In this document: positions 5,087 through 30,010 of the stretch, piece after piece
Layout of the letters: every line of letters begins with the position of its first letter
How positions within the stretch are numbered: position 1 is the first letter of the stretch
From: a virus
Lineage: Duplodnaviria > Caudoviricetes
DNA length: 64,000 nt
Direction: 5' to 3' (one strand)
Virus record (IMG/VR): IMGVR_UViG_3300047539_000052
Location: 4,310 to 68,309 of that record
Made by a program: the position numbers and the translations under genes
The notes under the pieces: model-generated
What the model was told of the DNA's origin: nothing
Database searches by the model: none
Seen by the model: the letters and a program-made list of their open reading frames with translations, nothing else

Positions 5087-5461
5087 ATGTCTCAGACCGT
5101 GCTTACCCCGATTACGCTGAAAGAAAACAATTACGCCGTCACCGCCGGCGACCTTAACATCACCCTCACCGCGATGGACGCCTCCAATGGCAATTCCTTT
5201 GCTGCCACCGGACAGGAAATTCTGCTGTTCGCGAATACCGACACAGCCACGCACACGGTCACCATCACCTCCACGGGAGATACGATCGGCCGCACCGATT
5301 CCTCGCTCACAAGCTATACCGTTCCCGTCGCGAGCGGCGGCACTAGCGGTATTTCCGCCGTTCAAATGAAACTTCTCACGGGCTGGATTCAGGCTGGAAG
5401 CGTGGTGTACTTGGCTACCAGTTCTGCGCTGGTGAAAGTGGCCGTCCTCCGCTACCAGTAG
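5087..5461 (+). CDS. hypothetical protein (probable virion component)
   Basis: RBS CAGGAG; position within head-tail cluster. Confidence 0.6.
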   Translation: MSQTVLTPITLKENNYAVTAGDLNITLTAMDASNGNSFAATGQEILLFANTDTATHTVTITSTGDTIGRTDSSLTSYTVPVASGGTSGISAVQMKLLTGWIQAGSVVYLATSSALVKVAVLRYQ

Positions 5462-5581
5462 GCGGCTTGCAGTAAACGTGTCTCGGCTCTCCGGGGCGGC
5501 GGGATGGCGGCTAACCGGCCGTTGGCATCCTAGCCGCCGGGAGCCGCGGCGCGGACATTCCAGCGAATCGACGTAACCCAA

Positions 5582-5944
5582 ATGGTCCTTCGCAGGCTCA
5601 GTTCGGCGCGCCGGACGATTGGCGGAATGTCGCGCCAGGTCACGCTCTACACCCTGGGTTCGCGGGCTGCGGATGGGGGAAACATCCCACCCAGCCCGTG
5701 GATTACCTCCTGGGCGGATATTCGCTCACTCAAGGGCGAAGAACTCGACAAGGCGGACCAGATCGCGCAGGCCGTCGAACTGATTGTCACCATTCCTTAC
5801 CAGACCGGAGTTGAACTCAATATGCAGGTCAGCTTCGAGCAGGAAATGTGGCAGATCAACTACATCGAGGATGAAGACCGGCGGCACGTCTTTCTGGATC
5901 TCTATTGCGCTGAAATTGGCCAGAACGCAGGGGAAAACTCATGA
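5582..5944 (+). CDS. head-closure / head-tail adaptor (SPP1 gp16-like)
   Basis: WADIRSLKGEE..IVTIPY...NMQV....WQINYI pattern; size and position. Confidence 0.75.
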   Translation: MVLRRLSSARRTIGGMSRQVTLYTLGSRAADGGNIPPSPWITSWADIRSLKGEELDKADQIAQAVELIVTIPYQTGVELNMQVSFEQEMWQINYIEDEDRRHVFLDLYCAEIGQNAGENS

Positions 5945-6360
5945 GAGCTTGGCACAGTTCCTTGTCCACGAAGCCAGCCGCTACTTCTGCTTCTGGCATC
6001 ATCGGCTCTCAGCAGTGGAATGATATTCAGCCGGTGGGCTATGTGACGTCAAACTATTCCGCGAGTGGAACCGTTCCCACAACGGTTGACCTCATCCGAG
6101 CGATCGGCGGAAGTGGCGGCATCGCGTTGCTACTCACTCCTAAACTCAGTTCGATAAGCGGGGCCAGCGGGACGTTCTATGTCGGCCAAGTCTATAAGGC
6201 AATCAAAGCCGATGCCGCCGCCGGAGCCGTGAACTTCGCTGATCTGAATGGCGCACTCATTGGTGGCGCCTCTTCCTATTCGCTTACCCAGCAGGGACAG
6301 TGGGCCGAGTTTTCCTGGAATGGTACTTCTTGGGACGCATTTGGAGGACAGGCCGCTTGA
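5941..6360 (+). CDS. hypothetical protein
   Basis: ATGA overlap with upstream gene, 139 aa. Confidence 0.55.
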   Translation: MRAWHSSLSTKPAATSASGIIGSQQWNDIQPVGYVTSNYSASGTVPTTVDLIRAIGGSGGIALLLTPKLSSISGASGTFYVGQVYKAIKADAAAGAVNFADLNGALIGGASSYSLTQQGQWAEFSWNGTSWDAFGGQAA

Positions 6361-6481
6361 GAATGTCCACGCTTCAACTCATCCGAGCCGGACTCGTCTG
6401 CCAGAAGAGGCGAATGCGCTATTTTCGGAAGACTGCAATGGCCGCCGCGAGACAAAGACACAGAGGATAGCACACACCCAA

Positions 6482-8093
6482 ATGAAACCCACATTCATCG
6501 CATCGGTCGCGTTCATATTGGCGTTGGCATTCTCTGCGTCTTTGTGTCTCGGCGGAGCGGCTTTCGGACAGACTCCGGGCCTCGCGACACGGATTGCGCA
6601 TGGCTCAACGCTTCCCTCGGGTGCGGAGCAATTCAGCGAGTTCGAACTGACGTCCGGGACGCCGACTCTTTATATCTGCAATGCGAATCCCTGCACCAAT
6701 TCCGGGCAGTGGGTGACCTCGACCGGAAGCGCCGGCTACGTCAATGTGGCGCTCTCGAATTTGTCCGGCGTGGCCATCAATACGGCGCTCTACTCCGCAA
6801 CCGGCGTGAACATGACCATCTCGGGATTTCCCGGAACTAGCGGGAATTCGCCGACCAGCAGCTATGTTCTTGGCGGAAATGCCTATACGAGCACCTCGCA
6901 GACCCCGGGATCGATTTATGTCCAACCCGGCTCAACTTCCGCGGTCGGCGCTACTCCAGGCAATATCAACCTGATCGGACAGGCGGGATACGGGACTACG
7001 GGCTCCGGCTCGAATATCTACGTGCAAGCGGGCGCCGGCGGATCCACTTCGCCGCGAGCCGCCGGGTTAATCAGTTTCGGCGGCGGCGGCGCCTCGGCCG
7101 TCAGTTCCGAAAGCTCTCCACTCACCGGCAGTTATGTGCCGTCGCTTTATGTCAACGCGGGCGCGAGCACCTTTGGCGGGGAAGTGGATTTCGTGAATGT
7201 GGGCAGTTCGAACGGCGTGATCCGGGTGACCGGGATGCCCTTCGCATTTTATGCGGACAATACCTATGACTTCGATCTGGCCGCCTATCGTCCGAAGAAT
7301 GTTTACATCGGGACGGGCCTTTATCTGGGCTCGACAACGGTTGGATTCACCGGGATTACGAGTGCCATCTCGGGCAACCTGATGGCGGCTGGAACGGTGG
7401 CAGGATCTTCGATTCCACTCTGCACGGATGCCTTCGGGAGATTTGACGATTACGACCGTGAGCTGCCCGAGCTTTCCGACTACAGGCACGTTGACCAATG
7501 GCAATTATGTGAGTGCGAGCGGAACGGCGGCGGAGCAGGATTCCGGCGTGCTGGCCGGACCCTACACAACCCTTCCCTGGGAGACGGCGCCGAATTGCTC
7601 GGGCGGAAGTCTCGGCACCATTACAAGCGCAAACAAGAGCTACGTCTTCGGTATCACGCTCGAATTTCCACTCAGCACCTCGAAGATCTTTTACGACGTC
7701 ACCAACTCGGACAATACCGGCAACGAATACGATCTGGCAGTTTATCAGGGCGCGCCGAGCGGGACTGAAAACCGATTACTGCATACCGGATCGAGCGCCT
7801 CGACGGGACAGCCGGGAACCACCTTCGCGCCGGCGAATGGCTGGCAGCATTTGAACTGGTACGAGGGAACAACCGTACTCCAGCCGGGGCGCTATTACGT
7901 GATGTTCACCTCAAGCTGCACTTCGGGCGGAGCGTACTGCGCGGAGATTGCGTCGAACGCATCGAGCGAAATGTTTTACTGGCCAGGGAGCGGGGGAGTA
8001 AGTATTTCTTCCGGAGGCAATTCGCCCACAACGTACTCCAGTTCCGCCGATTCTCCGGGCTCGAACACCGTGCCCTGCCTGCTGGTGGAGTAA
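6482..8093 (+). CDS. Ser/Gly-rich fibre-like protein with signal peptide; one frameshift near 7433
   Basis: MKPTFIASVAFILALAFSASLCLGGAAFG-Q at 6482; CTDA|SGDLTIT restored by removing one base. Confidence 0.6.
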
Positions 8094-12178: not shown

Positions 12179-12457
12179 CTAAATCCCGAAAACGTGCCGA
12201 TTCAATTCTCTATTGGCTGCTTGTCTTTGATCGGATATTCGCTGATAGTGGCTCTGCGCTTCCCGTTCGATGGTGATAGCGCGATCCAATGCCTCTCTAG
12301 CGATGGTCAGCTCCGTATCAATTTCTCGACATTTGGCCACGATAGCGAGAACCTCAACTTCCTCGATGGAGTGCCTGCTCGGAACGTATTGGCCTTTGAC
12401 TTCATTGCAGGTATCGCGCGAAGAACTTTCGAATGTCTCTCTCGTTTTTCTCATCAC
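12179..12457 (-). CDS. antisense hypothetical protein carrying a tail-tip-like peptide
   Basis: Coiled-coil ORF; TTGCCA-16-TAAAAT promoter-like sequence upstream. Confidence 0.5.
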   Translation of the reverse strand: MMRKTRETFESSSRDTCNEVKGQYVPSRHSIEEVEVLAIVAKCREIDTELTIAREALDRAITIEREAQSHYQRISDQRQAANRELNRHVFGI

Positions 12458-12481: not shown

Positions 12482-15400
12482 ATGGCAACTCTCAATGTAG
12501 GCGCGATGGCCGCTCGGCTGGGACTAGATCCCAGCGAGTTCATGGACAAAATGAAAGGTGTCCAAGGATTCAACGGCTTTGTCTCGTCCGAAATGGCGCG
12601 CCAGTGGAAGAAGACAGGAAGAGACGGACAGGAAGGACTTCGCCTCATAGACGAAGCTCTAGGAATCCATGTAGCCCGCCCGGTCGCACGCATCGTAAGC
12701 GAAACCTTTCCCGCGCTTGGTAAAGCTCTGGGTGGCATTCTTCCAGGGATTGCTTTCAGCGCTCTGGGATATGCGATTGTCGAATTCGGGGAACACATCA
12801 GCCAGAAGATGGCAGAGGCCAAAAAGAAGCAGGAAGAGTACAACGAAGCGGTTCGGACAGGGCAGCGAATTAACGAAGAGGCCGATGCTTCCCACGAAAG
12901 AACGATGGATGGGCTGCGAGCCAAGATGGCTCAATTGCAGGGCGATACGAAAGGCGCAGCATTCTTCAAAGGACGCCAAGCCGATTCGGAGGCGATCGAG
13001 AAACTCGCAAAGCAGGTAGATGACGTCACGCAGGCGCTGCATCGCCAACAAGTTGCGGCCGCCGCGCTGATGCCTTGGTGGGAAGCGCTCGGGAAGGCTT
13101 GGCATTCGATTTCCACGGGCGACGCTACGGCTGCAATCGAGACAATTGACAGCGAGACAGAGAGCTTCCGGGAAAAGGCGTCATCGATGGCGCGAAAAGA
13201 CGAAGCGGATCATACCCATGAGGCCGCTAAATTCATCGAAGAGGAGCGCCGAAAGGCTCAAGCTGCTTACGATACGGCGAAGGCCGCACGAGCTGCTGCC
13301 GACGTCGGATGGAGCCTTACCGCTCCCGGGCCGACCGTTCCGCCCTCACGCTATTTGACGGGCAATGAAGCGCTGAAGGCTGGCGCGAATGCGGCCCAAG
13401 ATGACCCCAAAGTCCTAGAGGCGGCCAAGCGCAGATTGGACGCGGCGAATCAGATTGCAAAAGATGCGCAGCATGATGCGGACGAAGCGAAAGCTAAAGC
13501 GCAAGTGGATGCTATCGAGCTTGGAAAAAAGCACGCCGATCAGCTTCGCGCTGAGATTGAAGGCATCAATCGCCTGGTCGGATCTTCTCAAGCTCTAGCT
13601 GCCGCCGCCGAACTTTCCGCTGCCGCTACAGGCAAAGGAACTGCGCAGACGATTCTGGCCACGGCTGCAGGCGAAGCGCAAAAACGAATTCAAGACTTCA
13701 TTGCCGAAGAGGATACGAAGTATTTCGAGAACATGAATGATAAGGTTGCGGCCAATAAGAAATTCATCGCCGCCCTTGATGCCGGTATTCCCAAAATCCG
13801 CGCCGCAGCCCTAGCCGAACAAACCTTCAAAGCGGTTGCTGAAGCCAGCAAGAGCGTAGAGGAATACAACAAGACCATCAAAGAAAGAATTGCGGCACTG
13901 AATGAAGAGGCGGCTGGACATGGCAAAGTAGCCGCCGAAATGGCGAAGATGGATGCGGCATATGATCAGCTCAAGCAGAAGTCTGAAGCTGCTCAAAATG
14001 CGCGAGCCAATCTGGGGCGAATCTCGGGCGCGGAGACGAATCTTGAAGCCTTGATGCCTACCGTTCATACCGCAGGAGCGAAGCAGGCCATCACCGAACT
14101 CTTGGGCCAGATTCACTCCCTGAACGGCGATGTCACCTTTGACCAGATGGACGCGGAAGTTCTACGACTTTCGTCACATCTGAAACTCACTCCGGCGGAC
14201 GTGGCGAAACTGCGCGAAGCTCTCTTACCCTTACAGGGCCTCAAGATTGTCCCGCAGATTGTCGCACCTTCCCTCGCTCCGCTCGCGCTTGCCACGGCGG
14301 TATTACAGAATCTGAAGCACCAGCAGATCCGGCCCACTGTTCAAATGGACCCGCTGGCCGCTGCGTTCAATCGAATCGATGCTGCCATCAAAGAAATGGG
14401 CGGTAACGTCACCCCGGCGAAACTCGATGCCGCGATTACCAAAGTAACGGAGGATCTGAAACTCGCGCCTCCGGAAATCGCCAAGATTCGCGAAGCCTTC
14501 GCGCCGCTCGCGAATAAAGTCTATGCGCCGGTGGTTGCCCCATCCCTTGCGGCCTTGCCCGCGGTCAAAGCCAACCTCCTAGAACTCGAAAAGCAAATCA
14601 CTCCCAGCCTAAATACAAGCGGCATGATGGCGGCGGTTGCGCAATTACTGCGGCAAATCGACACGCTGGGTACGGCTTTTACTTTGGACAAGATGGATGC
14701 GGAAGTCGTAAAGCTCACCGACCATCTGAAACTGGCCCCGGCTGAAGCCGAAAAACTCCATCAAGCCATCGCGCCCATGCAGGGCATAACTTTAGCGCCC
14801 AAGCTCATTCCGCCCTCGGTCGAGGTACTTGCCGGCGTGCATGCGGAATTCGAAAAGATCAGTCACGCGCGGCTCACTCCTACCCTGGTCGCTCCCACGC
14901 TACAAACCGGCGCAATTATTGCGGCGGTCGATCAAATTGAAGCTGCCATCAAATCGATGGGCGGCGATGTAACCTGGGCCAAAGTGGACGCGGCGGTAAC
15001 CAAGGTAACCAGCGACCTGAAACTGATGCCGGCGGAAATCTCCACCATCCGGGCGATTCTCGCGCCGCTGGAGAATCAGAAGATCTCTCCGGTGATCGCT
15101 CCGTCAACTGCGTCGCTTCAGGCAGTTTATGCCAACCTCGAAACCCTAGACCATAAACAGGTTTCCCCTAGCATTGAGACTTCGCAGATGAGGGAAGCTA
15201 TCGCCCGACTGCACAGTCAACTCGATGGACTTGGGTCCGGTTTCGACTGGACCAAGAATGTCTCGTTCTCGGAAATCGATGGCGGCCTGAAGAAAATTTC
15301 AGAAGATTTGAAACTGGCCCCACAGCAAGTGGCGGCTCTTGAGGAATCTCTAAAACCTTTACAGAACTTCACCGCTGCGGCGACGGTATCGCTTTCCATT

Positions 15401-18400
15401 CCGAACTTGCCCGCAGTCTATAGCGCACTTGAGGAAGTAAAGAAGCAGCAGATCAGGCCCACGCGTGCAGACCGATGGGATGACGCGGGCGGTTGCCGAA
15501 CTGCTCGGCGATCTGGACAGGCTCGGAGGGAATGCAACTTGGGTCAAGATGGACGCCGAGATTACCCGGCTCACGGAACACCTGAAGCTCGCGCCCTCGG
15601 AGGCCGCGGAACTCCGCCGCATCATCGAGCCGATGGGGAGCCAGAAGATCGTCCCGACGGTTGCGCCCACGGTCGAACTCTCGGACGTTTACGCGAGACT
15701 CAATACCATTCGGCAGACGCAGGTTCGCCCGCAGATTCAGACTTCGCCGATGTTGCAGGCGATTGCGAAGGTGCATTCCGACCTTGGTGATCTGGGAAAT
15801 ATCACCCTCGATAGACTGGATGCGGAGATTCGCAAGGTAGGACAAGACTTCAAACTGCTGCCTTCCGAAGTAGAGGAGATTAAGCAGGTTCTCAACGGCC
15901 TGAATGTCACGGTCGCGCCTGCCGTGGCTTCGCCTGAACTTCGAAAGAAAGTGGACGGAGACCTCGAATCTTTGGTGAACAAGCAATTTAACCCAAAGAT
16001 TACGCCGACGATTGAAACCGAACACGCCGCGGCAGCGGTCAACCAGATTCGCGCCTACATGAAGAGCATGGGTGACGACCTCACCTGGCCGAAGCTCGAT
16101 GCGCAGGTCAATCAATTTAGCGGCGATCTGAAACTCCTGCCGGCGCAGATCTCAGCCATCCGCGATGTGCTGGCCCCCTTGCAAAATGTGAGCATTGCAC
16201 AAACCGCGAGCGCGTCCGAGGGGATTTCCAAAGTGAAGGCCAACCTCTTAGGCATTCAGACGCAGCTCACGCCAACCATTCAGACCGACGGCATGAAACA
16301 GGCCATCGCCGAATTGCATGCCGAACTGCACACGCTGGACGGAAATACTGCATTGCCCATCATGGATGCGGCGGTAAAGAAACTGACGGATGATCTGAAG
16401 CTGGCGCCCGCTGAAGTCGCGAAGATTCACCAAGCGTTGTTGCCTCTCAAGGACGCCGCTCTCGCGCCGGTGGTGGCTCCATCCGTGCATCTGGCCGATG
16501 TCAACGCCGCGCTCAGTACGGTAGAGCACCAAAAATTCACTCCACAGATTCAGATCGGCCCATTGATGCAGGTTATCGCCAACCTGCGAAAAGAACTTGG
16601 ATCGGTGGGCGATATCAGTCTGGCGAAGCTCAATGCGGAAGTGGTCAAACTCGGGGCTGATTTCAAACTGCTGCCCGCGGACGTGGACCGGATCCAGCAG
16701 GCGATCAATCACCTAACGCCGGTTGACGTGGCGGTGCGGACGGCGGCGATTGAAAAGGCAGACGCCAATATCCTAGCCCTGGGACAAAAGCAGCCGGCTC
16801 CGACGATTCAGACCAGTGGCCTGAGTGAAGCCATCAGACAGATCCTTTCCCAAATCGATAGCCTTGGCGGCATCGTAACCTGGGAAAAACTGGACGCGCA
16901 GATCATCGCGCTTACCGACCATTTGCATCTGGTTCCCGAGCAGGTAGCCGAACTCCGCCGCATCATCGAGCCGATGCAGTCCATCAAATTCACGGCTACG
17001 ATTCCGCCCGAGATGGTTGCGGAAGCGGAGGCGAAGCTCCGGAAGTTGGCGGCGCCGCTAGTTCCCACCGTCCAGACCGGGAACCTGGATCGTGCCATCT
17101 CTGTATTGTCATCCGAACTGAAGCGCATGGATGGGCCGACCGCGTTTCCGAGGATGGATGCGGAAGTCGTGAGGCTCACCAAGGATCTAAAGCTTGCGCC
17201 GGAAGAGGCTGCGAAGCTTCATCAAGCTCTGCTGGGCCTGCAAGATATCAAGGCTGAACCGAAAGTAGTTCCCACGCTGCATCTGGCGGATGTGAATGCC
17301 GCTCTTGAAACCATAGCGCATAAACAGTTTGCACCTCAGATTCAGACGTTCGCATTAACGCAAGCGATTGCCACTCTGAAAAGAGACCTAGGGACGGTCG
17401 GGAATATCAGCCTGTCCAAGCTTGATGCCGAGATTGCAAAACTGGCGAGCGACTTCAAGTTGATGCCTCCCGATGTCGAAGAGCTTCGGAAGGCCCTGGC
17501 GAATGTGAAACTCAACGTTACGCCCATCGTTGCCAGCGCTGCCAAAGAACAGGCGCTTGCGCAACTCGCGGAACTTCGAAAGACAATCGCTCCCCGAGTG
17601 GAAATTGCGTCCAGTTCGCCCGAAGCCATATCCATTCCCGCGCCGACTGTCGGAACGCCGGAAGCCCCGAATGTCCCGAACCTCGCTGCTCCATCGGTTG
17701 AAACTCCCAAGATTCCACTCGCTGCCGCTCCAACACTTCCGAAGGTTCCCGCTCCGACCATTGAAGATTTGACTACTCCTCCTATTACGTTCTCAGCGCC
17801 TTTAAACATTCCCGCGCCCACGGTCGGCACGGCGCAAACTCCCACTCCTACGCAAGCCACGGCTCCCGAGATTGCTGCGCCCAAAATCGCCCTACCCACT
17901 CTGCCGCCTGAAGCAACTGCACAACTAGAGGCCTTTCTCGACAAAACTAAAGAGGAAGGCGGCACGCTTACCTATTCGAAGATGGATGCGGAGATTGTAA
18001 AACTGGGAGCCGACTTCAAACTCCTGCCGGGAGACGTGGCCGCGTTGCGCGATGCCTTCTCCTTCCTTCTCAAACCCGCGCAGCAGATCGACATGGTGCT
18101 GGAATCCCTGCTCACGAAAAATATCAGCCCCAAACTCAAAGCAGTCGCCAAAGAACTCCAGCATTACATCGCGACCACGGGAGACGTCTCCTCATCAGGT
18201 ATCAACTATGAAATTGACAAGCTCACACAGGAGCACGGAGTCGAAGCCCAGGCATCCGTCATTAGGCAGCCCGTACAGGTTGTGGAGCAAAGGATTGAAG
18301 CGCAACAGGAATTGGATAAACCACAAGACCCAGCAGAGGCGAAGCGACTTATGCACGCCCAGCAGTATGCAGAAGAGCTGCACAAGATCACGGATGAAAT

Positions 18401-19967
18401 ACTATCGCAAAACGCGGCACAGCTTTCTGGTTCCGCCAGGTATGAGGCAGAACTGCAAAAGATCCTCCCCTATCTGGAAGCGTCGGCGAAACTAGCCGGC
18501 ATTTCTCCAGAGAACTTCAGTAAGGAAATCGACAATCTTCGCAAAGCTTACAGCGATCTGCAAAACGCGAAGATCGGAGGCGAGTTTGAGAAGCTTGTCC
18601 ATCAAATCCAGCTTGCCAGCATCGAAGCCTCAGCCTTTGCAACAGCCGATCCCTCCGCCAGACAAGAAGCGGAAGCACAGAAACTCGGTTTCGAATACCA
18701 CGCGAATGCGAAGCAGATTGCACTCGTCAAGAATGGCTTGATCGATCTCCAGCGAATTGAGAATGTGGGCAAAGCCTGGCTTAACGTAGATGCGCTGAAT
18801 GCGGCCGGGGCGAAGATGCAGGAACTCCAGCAGCAGATGGCCTATCTGAATCAGGCTGCAAAATCCGGGCAGACCATCACCGATAAAGGCGAAATTATCC
18901 AACTCTCCCCGCAAGCTCTCGCTGCCGTCAAATTGGAGATGCTCGATATTCAGAGCGAAGAAGACAAGATCGCACTAAAAACCGGAGACGTTAACGCCGG
19001 ATTCCAAGCTTGGATTACGCAATTACAGCATGTCCAAAGCGCCGGAGAGCTAACCCTTGAAGGCCTCGATCAGACCATGAAAGGGTTTGAAGATACCGCC
19101 ATCAATTCCCTGATGGCGGTGATGACCGCGCAGCGCGGCGAGCACCTAAAGCTGATCCGCGAACTGGATAAGATGTGGTCCCAATATTTCGATGGCCTCG
19201 CCAAAATGGCCATGAAGCAGGGGATGAACCAGCTATTAGCTCCGCTACTGAAACCCTTCCAGAAACAGCCGCCGGGGCAGGAAGATCCATTCGCTCCTAC
19301 GGCAAAGGGCGCCCTTACGGGTCTGGGATCATTTCCGAAGGCCGGAGGCGCGGCTGGTCTCACGCAAGCGGGTGGCTTGCTATCGGCGGCCGCACGAGAA
19401 CTTAGCGCGGCAGCAGCAGCCTTGCGAGGTGGCGCGGTGGGCGCCCCTACTACTTCTAGCGGAATTCCTTTCTTAGGGGGAATGGGCGGCGGCGGAGGCG
19501 CGGATGCTGGCGGTTCTCTCGGAGCCGGAGGAGACTTCGCTGGTTTCTTTGCCGAGGGCGGCGACGTCACTCCTGGAAGCAGTTTTGTCTCTGGCGAAGC
19601 CGGAGCGGAACAAGTGGACCTCGATCGCAGCGGGGGCGCCCACATTACGCCATTAGGATTCAGCGCTTCGGGCGGTGGAGATACGCATCAACACTTCGAC
19701 ATGAGGGGCGCAGTCGTAACCGATGATCTGATGCGACGAGCGGAAGCGGCAGCCTTAGTCCATGCCAGCCAAAAGCAGATGATGGGTGCCATGCCTGCAC
19801 AGCAGAGAGAAATCAATTTGAGGAAGCGGGAGTTTGAAAACCTCGAATTCTCGGTGAGTCGGCTTTCTCCAGGGGATGTTTTCATTGAATTTGTAGGTAA
19901 AGCGGAAGGATGGATCGGTACGGAACGGAAATGCTCCCACCGCAGCGCTAACTGCGAGACAAACTAG
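12482..19967 (+). CDS. tape measure protein (~2,490 aa); one frameshift near 15464
   Basis: N-term MATLNVGAMAARLGLDPSEF, helical Ala-rich body, internal repeats, C-term FFAEGGDV..GEAGAE; ORFs 12482..15790 and 15465..19967 join as RPT|VQTDG by removing one base. Confidence 0.85.
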
Positions 19968-19994
19968 ACGCGATAGGAATTGTCTTCGATCCAT
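19755..19994 (-). CDS. small protein with twin-arginine-like N-terminus, overlapping TMP 3' end
   Basis: MDRRQFLSRLVCLAVSAAVGA. Confidence 0.4.
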   Translation of the reverse strand: MDRRQFLSRLVCLAVSAAVGAFPFRTDPSFRFTYKFNENIPWRKPTHREFEVFKLPLPQIDFSLLCRHGTHHLLLAGMD

Positions 19995-20204
19995 GCGTTC
20001 AACAAGAGAGGCGCTTAGTCTCCGCCTCTAGCAGTTTCGCCGTCAATCGTACCAACCAAGCCAAATCTTTAAGAGTAATTCCATAGCCGCACATGGCCTC
20101 GCGCTTGATTCTCGCGAAACGTTCCACATCATCTTTGCCTAGCTTGTGCGCCATTTTCTGAGAGTCTTTTTCTGAGAGTCTAGTCCTCCGCCCCTGAAAC
20201 CTCT

Positions 20205-21671
20205 ATGCCTGCTTCCCTTGTCCAAAGTGCCACGTCAACTCTGAGCGGTGGCACAACTACGACCGCGACCTTTACGAATCCCGCGAAAGTTGGAAACTTT
20301 GTTATCGTCTCCTTCTGGTTCGCCCTGCCATCGGCAGACTCCGGCCCTCCGGTCATTACGGATACCTACAACAATTCCTTTATCATGGCCACTCTCGGGA
20401 ATGTCTTCGTTCCGGGAAGCGAGAGCACCACGCCGGTTTATCTCTATGCAGGCGTCGCTTATGCCGTAACGACTACCAGTGGCCCGGGGCAGGCGGTCAC
20501 CATCGTCTGGGATACGGCAGAAGTAAACTTTGTCACCATCTCAGAATGGAACAATTTGGAAGGACTCGAGGATGCAGTTTTTGCCGGCGTAAATGTGGCC
20601 GCAGGAACGCCCACCGCCGCGCCGACCGTAGGGCCAGTCACTCCGCCCTCGGATGGAGAGCTGGTTTATTGCATGTTCGTCTCCGACGGTCTGAATTACA
20701 GCGGGAATCCAGCTGCTGGAGCCGGCTTTAATCTTATCCAATCGGTTTACTATCCGAATTTCGCGTGGGGCGATGAGTACGTAATTCAAAGTGCCGAGGC
20801 TCCCGTCACCGGCACTTTCGAGGCAGGCGGCGTTTTCGCATCTCCCACCGGCTACGTTGCGGTTATCGTTACCTTCACCTCAAACGGCCCTCCGGCCTCC
20901 GGCACGTTAATGGAGAGAAGCTTTGCCTGCAATGGCTGCTTTGAATCTACGAGCGCTTATGGAGACGTGCTAAAGAGTTTGGCCCTCAGCATGGCCGGGT
21001 TTGTTGTTCCCCCAGGTGATTGCTGGCGAGTCTACGCAGGAAGCTACGTCCCTCCGACCGTAACGCTACAAGATATCGATTGTCGCGCGGCCATCAAGGG
21101 AGATTTCCGCCTATCAAGTCGTGATACTTGCAACGGAGTAAAAGGCCAGTACATCCCCGGATTTCTTCCCATCAATCCTTTAGGGCCACTTTCTTCCTCT
21201 CCGGCAAGTTCGGCGTGGAAGAAAACCGACTTCCCTCCGGTCCAGCGCGCGAACTACATCGAGGAAGATGATGGAATCATCCTCTGGAAAGATATCCAAC
21301 TGGATTTCACAATCAGTCTTTGGATGGCGCAGCGCATTGCGCGGATCGTGCTGGAACGATTAAGACGGCAGGTTACGGTTTCGCTTCCGGCCAAGCTTAC
21401 CGGCCTCGCTCTGCTCGCAGCCGACACGGTTGAATTTCTGCACGCGCGTTGGAATACGGCAGTTCCGCCTCCGCCCACTACCTTTCAGATTTCTCACACG
21501 GCTTTAAGGATGGAATCTCAGGCGGATGGAGTACCGGGGTTTGGCGTGGATTTAGTGCTGCGGCAGACCGATGCGGAAGTGTATGAGTTCGATCCGCCAA
21601 CCTCGCCGACGAATTGGGGATCGTACTCTGGATATGGTCAAACTGGAATTGGGGAAGGCAACGTAGAGTGA
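20205..21671 (+). CDS. tail-tip/host-specificity protein, C-terminal half, with an extra N-terminal beta-rich domain
   Basis: ERSFACNG..DVLKSLALSMAG....WRVYAGSY..P; NGVKGQY; WKDIQLDFT...AQRIARIVLERLRRQVTVSLP motifs of J-like tip proteins. Confidence 0.7.
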   Translation: MPASLVQSATSTLSGGTTTTATFTNPAKVGNFVIVSFWFALPSADSGPPVITDTYNNSFIMATLGNVFVPGSESTTPVYLYAGVAYAVTTTSGPGQAVTIVWDTAEVNFVTISEWNNLEGLEDAVFAGVNVAAGTPTAAPTVGPVTPPSDGELVYCMFVSDGLNYSGNPAAGAGFNLIQSVYYPNFAWGDEYVIQSAEAPVTGTFEAGGVFASPTGYVAVIVTFTSNGPPASGTLMERSFACNGCFESTSAYGDVLKSLALSMAGFVVPPGDCWRVYAGSYVPPTVTLQDIDCRAAIKGDFRLSSRDTCNGVKGQYIPGFLPINPLGPLSSSPASSAWKKTDFPPVQRANYIEEDDGIILWKDIQLDFTISLWMAQRIARIVLERLRRQVTVSLPAKLTGLALLAADTVEFLHARWNTAVPPPPTTFQISHTALRMESQADGVPGFGVDLVLRQTDAEVYEFDPPTSPTNWGSYSGYGQTGIGEGNVE

Positions 21672-21955
21672 GAATGCGGAAAGCTAAAGCCCGCTGCTGT
21701 CGTGTAAGCGGGCTCTAGGTGCTGCTCTTTTGGCGCTCAGCCCATCCTCTGAAGAACCGTCTGAGACTTGAACTCCCGTTTCGCCGGTCCTCTGCGACAG
21801 CCCAGTAGCAGGATCACGTGTCGGTCCCCTTTACTCTCAGCCGCCTCGGGGACGAGATCTCCGTCAGTTTCTTCTCAGTCTTGCGGGCCTTGCTGTTTGT
21901 GGAATGTCTCGCGACGTTCGCTCGAAAAATCCTATCACGCGGCCTTGGAGTTTGC

Positions 21956-22534
21956 ATGAAACTGAAACTTTTATCTGTGATAATCGCGGCTCTAATTCTG
22001 AGTTCCGCGGCCTTTGCCCAACTGCCCTGTTTTGGCACAGCACCAGTCACGCCAAACCTGGGCTTCTCAATTCCGGTCTACAACTTCAACAACTGGAATG
22101 TGAACATCAATGACGATTTCTCCTGCCTGGATAATTACTTATCGGGAGCAACCGCCATTCCAGCAATCAAGATTACAGGAGCGCCTTCTGGCAGCGTTGT
22201 CGCGGCAGATGGAACGGGATATGTAACCCCGCTGCTCTCGGTCGCAAGCGGCACAGTTACCTTTCCCACAGCGACCTATTCGTCTGGTGCGTGTGGAACG
22301 GTGCAGAGCCTGACGGCAACGGGTGCGCTTTCGACAGACCGGATCAGTACCACTCCTAACGCTAACTGGGCCACGATTTCCGGCGGCGGATTCGTTCCTG
22401 GCGTCTCTGGAAATCCGCTGACGGTAGTGCCCTTTATCAGTTCCGGTCAAGCCAACTTCCAACTCTGTAACTACTCCTCATCGAGCGTTACAACGACGGC
22501 CTCCACTACGGCCAATTGGGGAGTGACGCGGTGA
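21956..22534 (+). CDS. fibre-like protein with signal peptide
   Basis: MKLKLLSVIIAALILSSAAFA-Q; TPNLGFSIP...WNVNINDDFSCLD resembles tail-fibre N-termini. Confidence 0.6.
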   Translation: MKLKLLSVIIAALILSSAAFAQLPCFGTAPVTPNLGFSIPVYNFNNWNVNINDDFSCLDNYLSGATAIPAIKITGAPSGSVVAADGTGYVTPLLSVASGTVTFPTATYSSGACGTVQSLTATGALSTDRISTTPNANWATISGGGFVPGVSGNPLTVVPFISSGQANFQLCNYSSSSVTTTASTTANWGVTR

Positions 22535-25161
22535 GGAGAGCGCTCCTTATAGTTCTCGGGCTCCTGGTAGTCTCGGGCTCGGCATGGGCGACGGAATATT
22601 ATATTTCGCCCACGGCCTCGGGCTCGAATAACGGTACCTCCTGCGCAAACGCATGGGCCTACACCAACAGCTTAGTTGGCAGCTCCCAGGCCGCCAACGT
22701 TACCATTCACTTTTGCTCGGGCACTTACACGGCCAGCGCCGACGGCACGATCGTCACTTTCACGGCCAGCGGAACCAGCGGCAATCCCGTGACCATGATC
22801 GCGGACCAGGGAGCGGTCATCTTTCAGGCACCCTACTTCAATGGTTCCAGCGGGGCGATTTCGAATAGCGGCTCGACCTCTTACGACGTGCTGAATGGCG
22901 ACGGCAACCTGACCATTCAGAATACAGCCAATGGAAGCTCGCTAGCCAATCAGCAGCAGAGCGTTGGCATGGGGTTTACCAATTGCACCCACTGCACCAT
23001 CGAAAATACCACGGTTAAAAACATATACGTCAACGCTGGCAGCTCCTCGAGCGCCACAAATACCAGTGGGGGAAATACCGCCTGCATCGTCATCAACGGA
23101 TCGTCGACCAGTTCCGTGATCAGCGGCAACACGGTCTCGCAATGCAAAACCGGGATCCAGCTGGGAACCGATTCCGGGGGTGATGCTTCGAATGCGCAGA
23201 TCACGGGGAACACAATTTCCGATATGGATTGGGGGATCAATGTCGGCGGCGGCGACTCCGGCGATACCATCAACAATCTTGAAATCGACCATAACAGCAT
23301 TACCAACTGGACCAACTGGCAGTATCCGACCGGCGCCTATCACCAGGACGGAATCATACTTTTCAATGTGGGCAATCCGAGTGCCGGCCTGAGCGCGATC
23401 ATCCACGACAATCACATTTTTGGAAATCTCGGCACAGGTTCGCCCACCGGCTTTATTTACTGCGCCGATTTCACGACCTGCACCATTTACAACAATCTGC
23501 TGGATAACACCGGGAACATCATTTACGGGATTATGTGGCTTGGCCAAAGCTCCGACCTTGGCAAGAACATGAGCGTGTACAACAACACGATCATCGGCGC
23601 CACTGCCTCCGACGTTTGCATCATGCTGAACATCACCGGGACCGCCTCAATAGAAAACAACGTCTGCACCGGACCCGCCGGCATGTTCATTTACAGTACC
23701 TATCTCAGCACGCTTGCTGATTTTCTGGGAGTGATCTCGGTATCGAATCACAACGTCTGGAACGTTGGCGCGGGCAATGCCTGGGGATCACAGGCCAGCG
23801 GCAATACCGCAAGTTATGCGACCTGGCAGGGCGATGGGAAAGATGCGAACAGCTCGCAGGCCACGCCGAACCTGAATAGCGGTTTCATCCCACAGCCGAC
23901 TTCTTCCGCCATTGGAGAAGGCGCGAATCTCTACAGCACGCTTTCGGGCGATGTGCTGAATACGGATTATGCGGGCAACTCCCGCGGCGGGTCTTCCTGC
24001 ACGCCGGTAGCGGGCACTGCGGGATGCTGGGATGCGGGTGCGCTCATGTATATGGGCGGCGGAGGCGGCGGAGGCGGACTCGCCACGCCAACCTGTAGTC
24101 CAGGCACGGAGACCACGAACAATACCATAAGCGTATCTTGCACGGTTGTCTCGGGAGCAACTGGTTGCTATACCCTGAGCGGCACAGCTCCGACGGCTCC
24201 GACGCCTGGAACCTGCGGCGGCGGATCGACTACTTATTCAGCGGCAATCAGCGTCACCTCAAACTCCGCCCACAATCTTCAGATTCTCGCGACCGAATCC
24301 GCGCAGACCAATAGCAGCGTGCAGAGCTATACCTACACCTTCACTGTGGGTCCGATCAGTTGCGTTCCTGCCACGGAGACATTTACCACGTCGGTCACGA
24401 CAAGCTGCAATAACCCAACCGTTGGGGCGCTCGAGTATTACACAACGGATGGATCTACGCCCATCTGCGCCTCCTCACCTGCTCTGACTGGCCTTGTGAC
24501 TTTCACGACGACGACAACCATGAAGGTCATCGCCTGCCAAACCGGCTATAACAGTTCCACCGTTACCAATGTCTATACCCTTAGCGGCGGTGGCGGCGGC
24601 ACTTTGGCAACGCCAACCTGCTCGCCAGGTACGGAGACGGCGAACAACAGCGTAAGCGCAGCCTGCGTGTTTACCTCGGGAGAAACAGGCTGCTATCGAC
24701 TGGACGGAACGGCACCGACTGCGCCGACTCCAGGAACTTGTGGCAGCGGATCGACTGCTTATTCGGCGCCAATCAGCATCACTTCGAATGCAGCGAACAA
24801 TCTCCAGATCCTGGCAACTGAATCCGGGTTCACCAACAGCGCGGTGCAAAGCTATTCCTACACTTTCACGGTGGCCACTCCGGTTCCTTCACCACCAGCG
24901 GGAACTTACACCAGCACCCGCAGTGTGACCTTAAGCACGGGCACAACCGGCGCGGCCATTCATTATGCCATCGGCTCAACGCCAAACTGCTCCTCCACTC
25001 TCTATTCAACGGCAATTTCGGTTTCTTCTTCCGAGACTGTGGAATCGATTGGCTGCCTCTCCGGCTATAACAATAGCGCCGTAGATAGTGCTGCCTATGT
25101 GATCGGTGGTGGTGGATCACCCTCGCCTGCCGGATTAAGCCTCGTCGTGGGAGGGCCATAA
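22531..25161 (+). CDS. parallel beta-helix (pectate-lyase-like) protein with chitobiase/Fn3-like C-terminal repeats and signal peptide
   Basis: GTG start overlapping upstream TGA; RRALLIVLGLLVVSGSAWA-T; I.I.NN-type repeats, YHQDGIIL; repeated ATPTCSPG/ATPVPSPPAGTY modules. Confidence 0.75.
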   Translation: MRRALLIVLGLLVVSGSAWATEYYISPTASGSNNGTSCANAWAYTNSLVGSSQAANVTIHFCSGTYTASADGTIVTFTASGTSGNPVTMIADQGAVIFQAPYFNGSSGAISNSGSTSYDVLNGDGNLTIQNTANGSSLANQQQSVGMGFTNCTHCTIENTTVKNIYVNAGSSSSATNTSGGNTACIVINGSSTSSVISGNTVSQCKTGIQLGTDSGGDASNAQITGNTISDMDWGINVGGGDSGDTINNLEIDHNSITNWTNWQYPTGAYHQDGIILFNVGNPSAGLSAIIHDNHIFGNLGTGSPTGFIYCADFTTCTIYNNLLDNTGNIIYGIMWLGQSSDLGKNMSVYNNTIIGATASDVCIMLNITGTASIENNVCTGPAGMFIYSTYLSTLADFLGVISVSNHNVWNVGAGNAWGSQASGNTASYATWQGDGKDANSSQATPNLNSGFIPQPTSSAIGEGANLYSTLSGDVLNTDYAGNSRGGSSCTPVAGTAGCWDAGALMYMGGGGGGGGLATPTCSPGTETTNNTISVSCTVVSGATGCYTLSGTAPTAPTPGTCGGGSTTYSAAISVTSNSAHNLQILATESAQTNSSVQSYTYTFTVGPISCVPATETFTTSVTTSCNNPTVGALEYYTTDGSTPICASSPALTGLVTFTTTTTMKVIACQTGYNSSTVTNVYTLSGGGGGTLATPTCSPGTETANNSVSAACVFTSGETGCYRLDGTAPTAPTPGTCGSGSTAYSAPISITSNAANNLQILATESGFTNSAVQSYSYTFTVATPVPSPPAGTYTSTRSVTLSTGTTGAAIHYAIGSTPNCSSTLYSTAISVSSSETVESIGCLSGYNNSAVDSAAYVIGGGGSPSPAGLSLVVGGP

Positions 25162-25165
25162 CTTT

Positions 25166-25978
25166 ATGTCAACTCCTCCAGTGGTTAACTATGGAGTCGG
25201 CGGATACGGAGTCGTCAGCACTAGCGGTGGTGGTGGCGGCGGGGGCGGCGGCGGGGGCTCGCCTTATATTCCCGTGGGCGGGCAGAACCTGGCCATTCCG
25301 GGGCTAATCTACCCCTCGGAAGCCGACCTGAAACAATTCGATGGCGTTGCCGAATTTATTTCGCCCTTCACCGGACAGGAAGAAGAGCAGAGTTTTCTTG
25401 ATCAGCACTGGGAGCTTGATCTTACCTGGCCGGAAATGACCTGGGAGCAGTTCGCTCCTCTGCAGGCTTGGACGGGCGCCCTGCATGGCAAGTCGGGAAC
25501 CTTTGTATGGGGCCCGCCGCTCGCTACCAGTCCGCGGGGCCTCGGAACCGCCGCGGGCGCACCAACCTGCGTCGGCACAGACCTGGTGGGCAGCAATGTC
25601 CTAACCCTGCAGGGCTGGACTCCGAGTACCACCGGAGTTCTCCTGCCGGGAGATTTCCTGTCGCTCTACAACGCGGAAACCGGCTATCGTCTCTATCAAT
25701 ACGTTGGAATACTTCCGTTATCCTCAAATGGCGGCGGCAACGCTTCGGCAGCGATCTTTCCCTCTCTTCGGGACGTACCGGCGGCGGGGCAGGCCGTAAT
25801 CCTGACCAATCCGCTCGGCACATTCCGCCTGGCGGAGAATCGCCGCTCTGCGCCGGCAAAAAAGACGAAGACGTTTACTTTGAGTCTGAAATGTCGGGAG
25901 GGCCGCCGAACGCGCCTACTCTGCTTTTGTCGAAGCGGTTCGCGAATTCTCTCCTCCAGTTGTGCAGACGTGGAATGA
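25166..25978 (+). CDS. distal tail / minor tail protein
   Basis: SPFTGQEEEQ...WELDLTWPEM...ALHGKSGTFVWG; LLPGDFLS; AIFPSLR; natural end probably near 25900. Confidence 0.65.
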   Translation: MSTPPVVNYGVGGYGVVSTSGGGGGGGGGGGSPYIPVGGQNLAIPGLIYPSEADLKQFDGVAEFISPFTGQEEEQSFLDQHWELDLTWPEMTWEQFAPLQAWTGALHGKSGTFVWGPPLATSPRGLGTAAGAPTCVGTDLVGSNVLTLQGWTPSTTGVLLPGDFLSLYNAETGYRLYQYVGILPLSSNGGGNASAAIFPSLRDVPAAGQAVILTNPLGTFRLAENRRSAPAKKTKTFTLSLKCREGRRTRLLCFCRSGSRILSSSCADVE

Positions 25979-26269
25979 ACTTCATCCACGAGTCAAAGCA
26001 GGATGGATTGCGGCGGCTGAAGCAGCACGAAGGTAAATTGTGTCCATCCCTCAAGTCCATATTACCCGGGCGGCTTATCGAATGATTGAAGGCACAACGC
26101 CCGCGCCTGAAACGCAAACCGTTATTGTCGCCGGCCCAAACGGAGCCGTTGTCTTTGAGTACGTTTTTGTGGATGAGATCCCTTCGCCGCCGGTGCAAAG
26201 CCAGATCGAACAACTGGAAAAACTCTACAAGCTCGATTCCTAGTCTCCCATACTCTCCCACATTCTCCC

Positions 26270-27281
26270 ATGCCCCGAAATCTCTCTCCTTCTGTACTGG
26301 CCGCACTGGCTTCGCCGCAGAAGTCGATGGCCCTATTTCTTGAAATCGTCTTCGAGAATGAAACGGTCTATTTGTGGAGTGGGTTGGGAACTTTCACAAA
26401 TGCAGGGCCAGCCTGGGATCCAGCCGCAACCTTTCCCTATGGCACAACTTTCACCGGATTGGGCTGGATGGGACGCATCGAGAGTGTGCCGCAGAATTCT
26501 GAACTTACCGCGGAAAACATGACGCTGATGTTGAGCGGAATTCCCGGGGAACTGCTGGGCGACGTCATCAATAACGTTCGGCTGGGCGGCTCGGCACAAC
26601 TCTGGCTCGGCTTCTTTTCCGGCGGCTCAGTGCTGGCGGATCCACTGCAACTCTGGCTCGGCGAATTGGATGTGCCAACAGTCAGCGATGGTGGGGATAC
26701 CTGCACCATCTCGATCACGGTAGAAAATTCTCTGCTGGCCTTAAACCTCGCATCCAATCGCCGCTTCACCACCCTCGATCAGCAACTCGATTTCCCTGGC
26801 GACTCGGGATTCGATTACGTCTGCGCCATGCAGGATCTGTATTTGAATTATCCCTGCGGGATCCTCGCCGGAACAAGCATCCTTCCGGGCAACCTGAACG
26901 CAGCTCCTTCGGTAGCCAACGCGCTCACTATTACGATCTATGCGGGTGGGGCGATCGGGCCGGTTGGTACTCAGGTCATCGCGATCGGACAGGTGATTTC
27001 GGTTGTGGGCACGGCCTATTTTGTCAGCGGCCCCTTCGCCTCTACCAATCCCGATGCCTCGACGCGAGTCGTGACATCGGTTGGGCTCTGGAGTTCGAGC
27101 GATACCAGCGTGGCCACGGTGACGAATGGAAGCGGGGCAATCTTGAGCGATGGCGGATGGCAATTTTGGTACGGGCGGCGGCGTCGTCACCGGCATCGGC
27201 CCGGGTAACTGCACGATTACTTTTTTTTTGGGCACGGTCTCCTGCTCGCTTACCGTCTCGGTTCCCGGGGTAGCGGAATGA
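26270..27281 (+). CDS. minor tail (hub) protein with C-terminal Ig-like domain; frameshift near 27161
   Basis: ALFLEIVF....YLWSG...FTGLGWMGRI; RRFTTLDQQLDFPGDSGFDYV; WSSSDTSVATV Ig-like motif continues in the shifted frame to TGA 27281. Confidence 0.7.
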
Positions 27282-27736
27282 CGGGCAACGGAATGACCAA
27301 GGCGCCGGAGCTGAAACGCCGTCGACACTGGGAGCGCCATCTGGCCGCGCAATTCAAGGCGGCGGCGAAACGCAGCTTCTCCTGGGGAACTTTTGACTGC
27401 GCGCTATTCGCGTGCGATTCGATCGCCATTCAGACCGGAATTGATCCGGGCGCGAGCTATCGAAATCGGTACAAGACGCGAGCCGAAGCCGAAGCCATTC
27501 TCGGAGCGGGGAAAGACGCGCTGGCGCAAACTGCCGAGAAAATTACCAAGCAGTTCGGCATGAAAGAAGTCGGCGTACACCACGCGCGGCGGGGAGATCT
27601 GGTCTTCCTCAATAACGGCACGCCCCAAGGTGCGCTCGCAATCATCGATTTCACCGGAACCTTCGCCCTGTGTCCGGGAAGTAAGGGCCTCATGCAAGTG
27701 AAGCGGCATCGCTGGCGCCGCGCCTGGAGAGTCTGA
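27278..27736 (+). CDS. NlpC/P60-like tail-associated protein
   Basis: FSWGTFDCALFA...TGIDP...Y.T..EA...ARRGDLV. Confidence 0.7.
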   Translation: MTGNGMTKAPELKRRRHWERHLAAQFKAAAKRSFSWGTFDCALFACDSIAIQTGIDPGASYRNRYKTRAEAEAILGAGKDALAQTAEKITKQFGMKEVGVHHARRGDLVFLNNGTPQGALAIIDFTGTFALCPGSKGLMQVKRHRWRRAWRV

Positions 27737-27737
27737 C

Positions 27738-29549
27738 GTGTCGAGAACTGCTACAGAAATCGGGATGATCGCGGGCGGCGTCGCCCTCGCGGCGGCTGCC
27801 TTTTATCTTGGTCCGGGCGCGCTCGCCATCTTTTCAAATACCGCCATCCTGAATACCCTGATGGGCATTGGGATCTCCGACGGCCCTGAGTGGCACGGCG
27901 GGACTCCTGAATACCCCGGCCGACCCTTCGAATATCGGCCCCCAAGGCCAGCTTCCGGTTGAGACTCCGAATCCTCTGTGGAGGATTGTCTATGGGATCT
28001 TCCAGTTCGCCGGCACCGTGACCTTTGTGGATGGACCTTTCCTGGGCTGGGCTGGGACGGGAAGCGGAACCCGAGTGCAACAACCAATACATCCAGCGGG
28101 TCCACACCCTTACCGCCCATCAGATTGCCGGATTTATCGCAGTGGTCATCGACGGGCAAACCTACAATTTTGGCACCGATCTGTGCATGCTGACGACGGA
28201 GAATAATGGCGGCGCAGAAGACGTCAATGCAATCGGTCCAGTCGGGGCATGTGGGGATTCATCAATAACTCGAATCCCTGGCTGGGCGCGATTTGTTTCG
28301 CCTTCGACTGTGGGCGATCCCGGCAATAGCACGCAGCCCTTTTCCTACTCTGGTAACCGGGGCGCAGATTACCGGGCGAAGAATGGACCGCAACCATCAT
28401 CGGCTCGACTCGCTGGCCTGCCGGCGCCCTGCAGCGCGGCCGAGCCAAGGTGCATGTCCTGCTTATCAAATTCGTCCGTCGAATAATAATCTGCTCCCCG
28501 GTCCCTACGGTGGCGCTCCTCAGCCTTACGTACTTTCGACCGGCCGTATTCCCGACCATTGAATTCAAGATCATGGGAAGGATCATCAAGGATTATCGCG
28601 TGGTCACGGCATGGCAGGCGGACACTACTTACCCCGCCTACGGTTACGTCTTGGCCACGGGCGGCGGTAGTGGAAGCGGCAGCGCTGGCATCCCGATCGT
28701 CAGCTCTGGCCTCGTCGGCTCTACGATTTCTGCGATCAGCGAGGCCGGCAACGTGGTCTCGGTCACCGCCTCGGGGAATGTCTTCACGACGCTGGGTTCC
28801 GGCAGCGGCGACGTTTTTGTAACCATTTGTCCTTATACCAGCCTGCCGGGCGGTGGAACGAGCGGCGCGACCATTCCTAATTTTGCGGGCGTCAACGGTG
28901 CGGCATTCCCCGGGAGGCACAGGCCATCACCGATGGAAGCGTGACCTGGTCACTGAATGTGGGAGGCGCCATCGACCATCTATTCTACCATTGGCGGTGG
29001 AACGAGCGGGCAGCGGGCAGACCGGGCTGAATGCTCAAACCTCCATCAAACTGGGCGGCCCCGGTGCAAATATCGCCGCCCTCAATGGCGGAACTGGCAC
29101 TTACTTGGTCGCGGATGCCTGGCAGGGATCTACTGCGTATGCAGCGAATGCCGTAATCGAAGCGCCGATCGGCGTATTGCAAATGGCGCAGTCGGCTTTT
29201 ACTTCGGGAGTGACTCGGCCGCCCTTCGCAGCCGAATGGCGTCCCGGCTCTCGATTCCTGAACGTTAATTTAGTCGGACAGGTAGTAGCAGAGACGAACC
29301 GGCGGCGGAAGCTGGGTCTGCCTGGGACGATCGATGTATGCCACTTGCATGCCAGATGATGACAACACAACGAATCAAGGCGGCTTCTCGAATCCCGCGT
29401 TAGTCGTAGCCGATTACCTCCAGACACCGAAGAATCAATTTGGCTTAGGCACAACCCTTACCGGAGATTCGATTGATACGATTATCGCGGCCGCCAACAT
29501 CTGCGACGAGCCCGTGGTTATCGAGGTCTTCCCGCCGCCCGCTGGTTAA
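27738..29549 (+). pseudogene. tail-tip/host-specificity protein, N-terminal half, multiply frameshifted
   Basis: Pieces WRIVYG, HQIAGF, TIEFKIMGRIIKD and FSNPALVVADYL...AAANICDE lie in successive frames; at least 5 indels. Confidence 0.6.
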
Positions 29550-29563: not shown

Positions 29564-30010
29564 ATGGATCTTTCTACGCTTTCAGACCGCAAAGCGCTGG
29601 CGGCGAAGTATGCCGCAAAACATAATCTCGATACCGTTCTGGTCTGCGCCGTCTGCGAACAGGAAAGTTCCTGGGACACTTTCGCCATTCGCTTTGAACC
29701 AGCATTCGAAACTCGCTATATTCATCCCGCCCTGCCGGCGGCGCCATCCACGCTGGAGCTTACGAAAGCCATATCATTTGGACTCATGCAATTGATGGGC
29801 GAGACGGCAATCGAATTCGGATGGCACGGCACATTTCTGACAGAGCTCTGCGATCCCGATATCGGTGTGGATTTCGGCTGCGCCAAACTGCGGCATTGTC
29901 TGGACATTCGCGCGGCCGGAGGCGAAACCCAAGCTCTATTGGCCTATAACGGTGGATCGAATCCGCTCTACCCGTCTCAGGTTCTGGCGCGAAAACCGCA
30001 CTACGAATAG
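29564..30010 (+). CDS. lytic transglycosylase (SLT-family) endolysin
   Basis: AVCEQESS (catalytic Glu), SFGLMQL, DPDIGVDFG, ALLAYNGG; RBS GGAG. Confidence 0.85.
   Translation: MDLSTLSDRKALAAKYAAKHNLDTVLVCAVCEQESSWDTFAIRFEPAFETRYIHPALPAAPSTLELTKAISFGLMQLMGETAIEFGWHGTFLTELCDPDIGVDFGCAKLRHCLDIRAAGGETQALLAYNGGSNPLYPSQVLARKPHYE

Follow-up and report, generated by a model that had tools for sequence, protein, structure and literature searches.

How does the tail-tip protein of a phage come to be encoded in two pieces, with the second piece lying 8.7 kb upstream of the first? The question is posed by a phage (Duplodnaviria; Caudoviricetes) represented by IMG/VR record IMGVR_UViG_3300047539_000052, a linear, metagenome-derived virus contig of 68.3 kb that is rated 76% complete. 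Bases 4310–68309 of the record, 64,000 nucleotides (nt) in all, make up the stretch analyzed here, which we call the window and to which the coordinates below refer; it was examined by open reading frame (ORF) listing, Pfam and PHROG family scans, tblastn, Logan contigs and frameshift-aware alignment. The N-terminal part of the tip protein, termed tipN, lies at 27738–29549 (+ strand), begins one base past an NlpC-like gene, and ends …VIEVFPPPAG*. The C-terminal part, tipC, comprises 259 residues encoded at 20892–21671 (+), and these form residues 230–488 of a 488-amino acid (aa) protein, X-tipC (ORF 20205–21671), the remainder of which is a lineage-specific N-terminal domain, X (229 aa; 20205–20891, +). 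We conclude, with a confidence of about 75%, that phages of this lineage build a hub of the gpJ/pb3/megatron type from two genes, that the cassette carrying the C-terminal half has been relocated, and that the breaks in the reading frame of the window tipN are technical.

A first-pass annotation had proposed that a single cut divides one J/pb3-type tip protein into these two pieces, and tblastn and family profiles bear this out. Residues 421–497 of the intact tip of one relative, L003, align with 29304–29534 in the window, and residues 497–755 with 20892–21668, at 75–79% identity. Both halves are matched by the same two PHROG profiles, in coordinates that are contiguous over the break: 231–288 and then 291–462 of phrog_5616, and 530–575 and then 581–745 of phrog_31. 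Window tipC is 73–75% identical to the final 255–260 residues of intact tips, and the two halves align to the same intact tips rather than to different families. The positions given earlier for the two pieces also stand: the frame 29289–29549 terminates …AAANICDEPVVIEVFPPPAG*, directly before the lysin start at 29564, and the continuation, at about 20890, follows an unrelated domain. The further proposal that both ends of the break carry a PPA(S)G motif holds for the window pair, which reads PPPAG* at the tipN stop and GPPASG on the tipC side; the pair P0007/P0034 lacks this overlap. Proteins of the gpJ/pb3/megatron group carry hub domains HDII to HDIV on one polypeptide. Here the chain stops at 29549 and resumes in the ORF at 20892, and the same interruption is found in L022, L035 and many clusters of relatives. 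TipN occupies the canonical position of such a gene, after TMP (the tape measure protein), Dit, a gpL-like hub and a gpK-like NlpC protein; tipC does not, lying between TMP and Dit instead. Joining of the halves by a split intein was considered and rejected: P0001 contains no Pfam intein, and tipN stops right at the cut. A similarity in the DNA past the tipN stop (GTTAATCCGGAGAA versus GTTAATGGAGAGAA) was taken as chance, because it overlaps the ribosome-binding site of the lysin, whose start is also conserved in the prophage L033, where the tip ahead of it is uncut.

The gene order of the window, read from ORFs and family scans, is TMP, X-tipC, a 238-aa protein, an 881-aa beta-helix protein, Dit, hub, NlpC-like protein, tipN and lysin. 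It is not a misassembly, since independent contigs support all three junctions between the blocks, and the unusual order described at first, TMP-[tipC, fibre, beta-helix]-[Dit, hub, NlpC, tipN]-lysin, is therefore real. At the first junction, Logan contigs with 0–1 mismatches bridge the end of TMP and X-tipC (19829–20905, 19829–20216 and 19829–20209), and the joint within X-tipC is spanned by exact contigs at 20275–20947 and 20444–20930. At the second, exact contigs (22183–25216 and 22585–25216) run through the 881-aa gene and 50 nt into Dit, where they end at a polyglycine repeat. The exact bridging contigs come from different samples. The third junction is covered by L022, a 2.5-kb contig from another sample, which holds the end of the NlpC gene, an in-frame tipN of 724 aa (149–2323) ending PPPAA*, and the lysin; at the junction its DNA hardly differs from that of the window, while its coding DNA is ~74% identical. 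Finally, a single JGI contig of 68,637 nt holds an intact tipN of 523 aa (P0190) together with P0185, an X-tipC of 97% identity.

These observations leave little room for an assembly chimera, in which strains, or two phages, have been misjoined and the actual gene order is conventional. In favor of a chimera, the contig was assembled from a metagenome, depth falls and Logan contigs diverge (by 3–9%) between 25.9 and 29.7 kb, and there are loose contig ends at 25901/25902 in three runs. Against these stand the exact contigs across TMP/X-tipC and 881-aa/Dit, the L022 contig, diverged yet with the same junction DNA, and the presence of P0185 and P0190 on one contig, and we regard a chimera as very improbable. 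The loose ends have a pattern of their own: in three runs contigs match exactly up to 25901 and then depart from the window, and others begin to match at 25902. This position, close to where Dit ends, has the appearance of a breakpoint of recombination between strains.

Nor is the arrangement one state of a switch. In invertible or shufflon-type host-range switches, such as those of Mu (Gin) and P1 (Cin), inverted repeats flank alternative C-terminal segments and a recombinase is present as well. The three block junctions of the window have no meaningful repeats, only short matches at chance level; both halves of the tip gene lie on the same strand; and no recombinase occurs among the ORFs between 12 and 30 kb.

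The same cut recurs among related phages, and it is this that marks it as a working design rather than a broken gene. A search with the tipN of L022 recovered at least 19 clusters that end at the same …AAANICDEPVVIEVF site, VIEVF plus 0–5 residues. The 19 end 7–12 residues past the motif AAANICDE, are 56–95% identical, and come from contigs of up to 237 kb; besides P0004 and P0005, the other 17 are 490–617 aa in length. Seven uncut forms of 746–887 aa emerged from the same search, and these run on as …VIEVFADSTSLSERSYACNG…. With tipC, at least 17 clusters were found in which tipC, 80–91% identical to that of the window, stands behind an unrelated N-terminal part that has a start codon of its own. 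The N-terminal parts include a leader of ~35 aa (in 294-aa proteins), Big_2 (386 aa), TIG (413 and 509 aa), NHL propellers (625–661 aa), the 225-aa type of P0032, and the type found in the window, which has no Pfam or PHROG match and whose sole database match is its own cluster, 97–99% identical. (An Atlas lead for domain X points to unnamed viral proteins of 175–192 aa.) In five cases, a tipN cluster and an X-tipC cluster occur on contigs of equal length (68,637, 43,731, 236,980, 23,892 and 13,181 nt), and in a sixth, L035, both halves are seen directly.

In a tree of tipN sequences, the uncut forms make up one clade and the labels 'split' and 'uncut' are far more clustered than in shuffles; there may have been one origin of the split within the window's lineage. 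Within the tree of tipC sequences, P0038 and P0040 form another split group, nested among uncut forms with a support of 99, and at least two transitions between split and uncut have occurred. No additional split genomes of the window's lineage came out of further IMG/VR scans, for which the queries were the hub, the 881-aa protein, the L022 tipN and alignment A2. Of two scans of GTDB genomes, the first gave no match and the second only uncut tips; a search through 401 genomes from the order to which G001 belongs returned two matches, both uncut. L007 and L009–L014 have only the lysin in common with the window.

It is conceivable, all the same, that a one-off swap of blocks cut an intact tip gene in what is now a defective phage or a decaying prophage, and that the frame breaks in tipN are real decay. 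The record's tipN does have ~16 frame breaks, TMP changes frame and differs by 1 nt at 19827, and a relic of an inverted tipC at 12344–12442 speaks for past rearrangements. Such a scenario is unlikely, in our view. The same cut occurs without loss of frame in L022, P0004, P0190 and some 17 further clusters at 56–67% identity. Divergence of that order could not accumulate in a dead gene that kept its length and motifs. The character of the frame breaks, moreover, fits poorly with neutral decay.

No long open frame crosses 27738–29549 in the ORF listing, and frameshift-aware alignment of the window tipN with P0004, an in-frame counterpart of 707 aa, requires 16 frame skips. Approximately 125 central codons are absent or jumbled relative to P0004, with the collapsed center at ~28790–29006. 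Yet 546 of the 582 aligned codons (94%) are identical to those of P0004, with runs that are identical throughout (57/57, 74/74 and 83/83), and in the first 800 nt every non-triplet difference from L022 is an extra base in the window. Logan contigs from three runs have 1-nt deletions at matching sites: 27880, 28071, 28310, 28350, 28378 and 28381. The same three runs also carry a short-center form, in which 28668 is joined to 28806 with GSNPAGGD between the two sides, and this matches P0005. Because the indels are many, change almost no amino acids, and are concentrated where strains differ most, the breaks are most likely errors of consensus or assembly in a strain-variable stretch rather than decay. 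They are not the only ones: at least two other frame problems exist in the record, in the phase of the TMP repeats at 15349–15579 and in a G missing at 19827. Tip genes elsewhere can look similar; those of L033 (8653–10786) and L037 (3–748), both metagenome-derived, are each in two frames with one apparent frame change.

If the cut is old and shared, a swap of blocks did not cause it, and here the first-pass annotation, which pictured two adjacent blocks trading places and breaking the gene as they did so, has to be given up. L035 is organized in the normal order, with an NlpC gene, a tipN at 4776–5744 (322 aa, ending AAANICEEQVTVFIGG*), 66 nt, an X-tipC at 5811–7070 (419 aa), a fibre-like gene and a lysin-like gene. 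The same cut, with the two genes adjacent, implies that the split and the relocation were separate events. The ancestral order that a swap presupposes, tip-fibre-beta-helix-lysin, likewise finds no support among uncut relatives. In L003–L006, from IMG/VR, the order is the conventional one of TMP, Dit, hub, NlpC and tip, with intact tips of 755–887 aa. In these and in L033, small genes or an SLT lysin directly follow the tip, and there are no fibre or beta-helix genes after it; the SLT lysin behind the uncut tip of L033 is 64% identical to that of the window. The slot between TMP and Dit is filled in the uncut relatives by an unrelated gene of 350–380 aa. (One such gene, L005 4222–5343, was considered as a relative of domain X and has no similarity to it.) Given that uncut relatives lack fibre and beta-helix genes after the tip and carry an unrelated gene in the slot, the 5.2-kb block of the window (19968–25165) has the look of a cassette set into a variable slot rather than of one half of a reciprocal swap. 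The simpler reading is that the gene was split at an older date, and that the whole cassette—X-tipC, the 238-aa gene and the 881-aa gene—was relocated afterwards into the slot between TMP and Dit.

There are hints in the protein sequences that X-tipC genes formed next to Dit. In the 294-aa X-tipC proteins (P0192, P0195, P0197 and P0033), the initial 33 residues resemble the N-terminus of the Dit (4494–5234) of L034, an uncut-type relative, with 45% identity (E 4e-6), and the leader of these proteins is composed of repeats of VRSTQEA..IS, while the Dit of L005 has similar VREAF repeats. The cassette is also mosaic among strains, since in Logan contigs from two runs 734 other letters take the place of 21672–21946, immediately after the X-tipC stop.

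Where, then, does the cut fall in the protein? The fold of the hub domains was examined on an uncut relative, P0011, rather than on the window chains. A profile made from alignment A4 matched T5 pb3 in the PDB with an E-value of 7.7e-28 (residues 256–828), T1 with 1.8e-17, F2 pyocin with 5.7e-13 and lambda gpJ with 8e-12; the smaller alignment A3 found nothing. An AlphaFold model of P0011, built from a 63-sequence alignment, has a pLDDT of 83 and a pTM of 0.85, and in Foldseek its best match is again pb3 (3e-17), followed by gpJ (4e-12) and the gene transfer agent (GTA) structure 6tba (7e-11), with T1 matched as well. In this model, the cut is positioned in the loop 488–492, between one strand at 482–487 (VIEVF) and another at 493–497 (SLSER), so that it is predicted to lie in the loop of a beta-hairpin of a hub protein like T5 pb3 or lambda gpJ. 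At the position of the cut, pb3 has 13–19 extra residues according to the profile alignment. The tipC segment aligns to pb3 ~520–710, and its long helix (631–646) aligns with pb3 ~635–655 and would correspond to the hinge helix of hdIII.

A cut in the loop of a predicted hairpin separates two strands that could find each other again, and for this reason we favor strand complementation. As we picture it, tipN, of ~500–720 aa, would be made at the canonical place, after the gpK-like gene, and stop a few codons past …VIEVF, before the lysin. TipC would form the C-terminal end of another protein, the front portion of which, X, varies between phages. From these two chains a single hub fold might then be rebuilt, each supplying strands to the other, and X could be displayed at the cut as an extra module for binding or adhesion. 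The X-tipC gene of the window's lineage is part of a 5-kb cassette that lies between TMP and Dit and also holds the 238-aa gene and the sugar-binding 881-aa gene; in another lineage the tip genes are adjacent, in the usual order.

Alternatively, the halves might not reassemble: the tail tip would be closed by tipN without tipC, and X-tipC would be a fibre or adhesin in its own right, one that reuses a tipC-like anchor. In favor of this, 8.7 kb separates the two genes, X-tipC has fibre-like genes as its neighbors, and the division of the hub differs among phages, being one chain in T5 and two in lambda and GTA (PMC10038345, PMC10721106). But the parts on either side of the cut are neighboring strands of one hairpin in the model of the uncut relative, tipC holds the pb3 ~520–710 segment, long helix included, and no split genome is known that has one half only, six pairs being known (five by equal-length contigs, L035 directly). 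We give this alternative little credence.

Several points weigh against the two-gene reading. No contig identical to the window tipN has been seen, and for that reason the window strain may after all possess a tipN copy that has genuinely, and recently, decayed. A binding role for X is suggested by domain types (NHL, TIG and Big_2) and by variability, and the window's own X has no known fold. Outside the window and L035, pairing of the halves rests on contigs of equal length, not on gene order that has been read, and a single-sequence AlphaFold prediction of P0001 was unusable (pLDDT 30).

Taken further, the two-gene reading would make the cut loop a natural plug-in site: tipC would act as a conserved anchor that complements tipN, and onto its free N-terminus unrelated receptor-binding domains (NHL propeller, TIG, Big_2 and the 229-aa domain) would be swapped; in the window's lineage, anchor and spike genes would make up a movable host-range cassette, set between TMP and Dit; and the split would have arisen, or been reversed, more than once. 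This extension is tentative, and we rate its chances at somewhat less than even.

How do these proteins compare with systems already characterized? Published structures show the hub domains shared out between gpL and gpJ in lambda, and between hub and megatron in GTA, with extra domains in the strand-strand loops of gpJ (PMC10038345, PMC10721106, PMC11101478). T5 pb3 (PDB 7zhj) is one chain with hub domains I–IV, and it is this protein that both the tip-family profile and the model of the uncut relative match best. The single chain of pb3 includes the gpL-like part, whereas the window divides this fold among three genes, those for hub, tipN and X-tipC. Compared with pb3, the tip family ends ~260 residues past the cut, with no FNIII or fibre part seen. 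Lambda (gpL and gpJ) and RcGTA (hub and megatron) share with the window the same module of TMP, Dit (gpM), hub (gpL), NlpC-type protein (gpK) and tip (gpJ), and both gpJ and the RcGTA megatron are matched by hidden Markov model and by Foldseek. They also provide the precedent for hub domains split between chains and for extra domains in loops (PMC10038345, PMC10721106). What is new is a third division of the hub, inside the hairpin of the gpJ-like chain and always at the same residue position, with a variable domain grafted there. Unlike lambda and RcGTA, the gpJ-like chain is cut again, the variable domain is on the new N-terminus, and the gene for the C-terminal half is upstream of Dit. There is a likeness, too, to the exchange of receptor-binding domains among fibres and spikes, in that a conserved anchor (tipC, 80–91% identical) is combined with unrelated distal domains in close relatives; here, however, part of the hub core serves as anchor in place of a fibre N-terminus, and the variable part is N-terminal to it.

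The cut marks a site at which the tail tip accepts broken chains and foreign domains, and suggests that host range could change with the hub core left untouched. It is accordingly a candidate display site for engineered phages or tailocins. For those who annotate genomes there are two lessons: a truncated J protein beside a lysin need not be a pseudogene, and breaks of frame in strain-variable stretches of metagenome contigs can be artefacts.

The remaining genes of the region complete the picture. TMP (12482–19967, +) is repeat-rich, ~2,450 codons long, and read as two overlapping ORFs, 12482–15790 and 15465–19967; its N and C ends match the start and end of single TMPs of 819–832 aa in L004 and L005. 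It is built of ~270-nt repeats (MDAEVVKLT.DLKLAPAE…), the phase of which moves by +1 within 15349–15579. In each of the four runs with Logan contigs there is an extra G after 19827, which brings the TMP stop to 19836 and gives a homologous end. Just upstream of TMP, at 12344–12442 (−), is the tipC relic mentioned above (SSRDTCNEVKGQYVP…; tblastn E 1e-5; own-genome search E 1.9e-4; inverted repeat I1). It is a degenerate, internally deleted piece of another tipC allele, RETFESSSRDTCNEVKGQYVP…IEEVEV, and gives evidence that tipC was inserted there earlier and that tipC sequences have moved around TMP more than once. A small antisense ORF of 51 aa (19999–20154, −), with no Pfam match, stands at the left edge of the cassette. 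Beyond X-tipC, the 238-aa cassette protein comes from the ORF listing (21818–22534, +), and the 881-aa beta-helix protein (22516–25161, +), which has four CHB_HEX_C and Fn3_assoc sugar-binding repeats in Pfam, is probably a tail spike or depolymerase. Dit (25166–25978, +) is lambda gpM-like by phrog_1302 (E 1.7e-25) and by synteny with relatives; a run of ~14 glycines near its N-terminus (25217–25263), encoded by GGT/GGC repeats, breaks short-read contigs. The hub (26270–27208, +), like lambda gpL and the GTA hub, matches phrog_2048 (E 8e-35) and is 55–58% identical to hubs of relatives. The DUF6950/NlpC-P60-like gene (27278–27736, +; PF22262, E 2e-30) occupies the position of lambda gpK, and the lysin that directly follows tipN is an SLT-type lytic transglycosylase (29564–30010, +; PF01464). 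A scan for promoters and terminators between 19.6 and 30.4 kb gave background levels only.

The segment of the window from 19.9 to 29.8 kb is present in peat and permafrost metagenomes from ~18 studies. Its nearest cellular matches are prophages in metagenome-assembled genomes of Terriglobales, Acidobacteriaceae and Candidatus Sulfotelmatobacter, and on these grounds the host is very probably an acidobacterium. Elsewhere in the window, at 59244–61283 and 61447–63999, the large terminase occupies two ORFs, with positions 15–84 and 90–284 of the TerL_nuclease profile separated by ~110 nt, and the portal gene contains an intein bearing a LAGLIDADG domain (Pfam).

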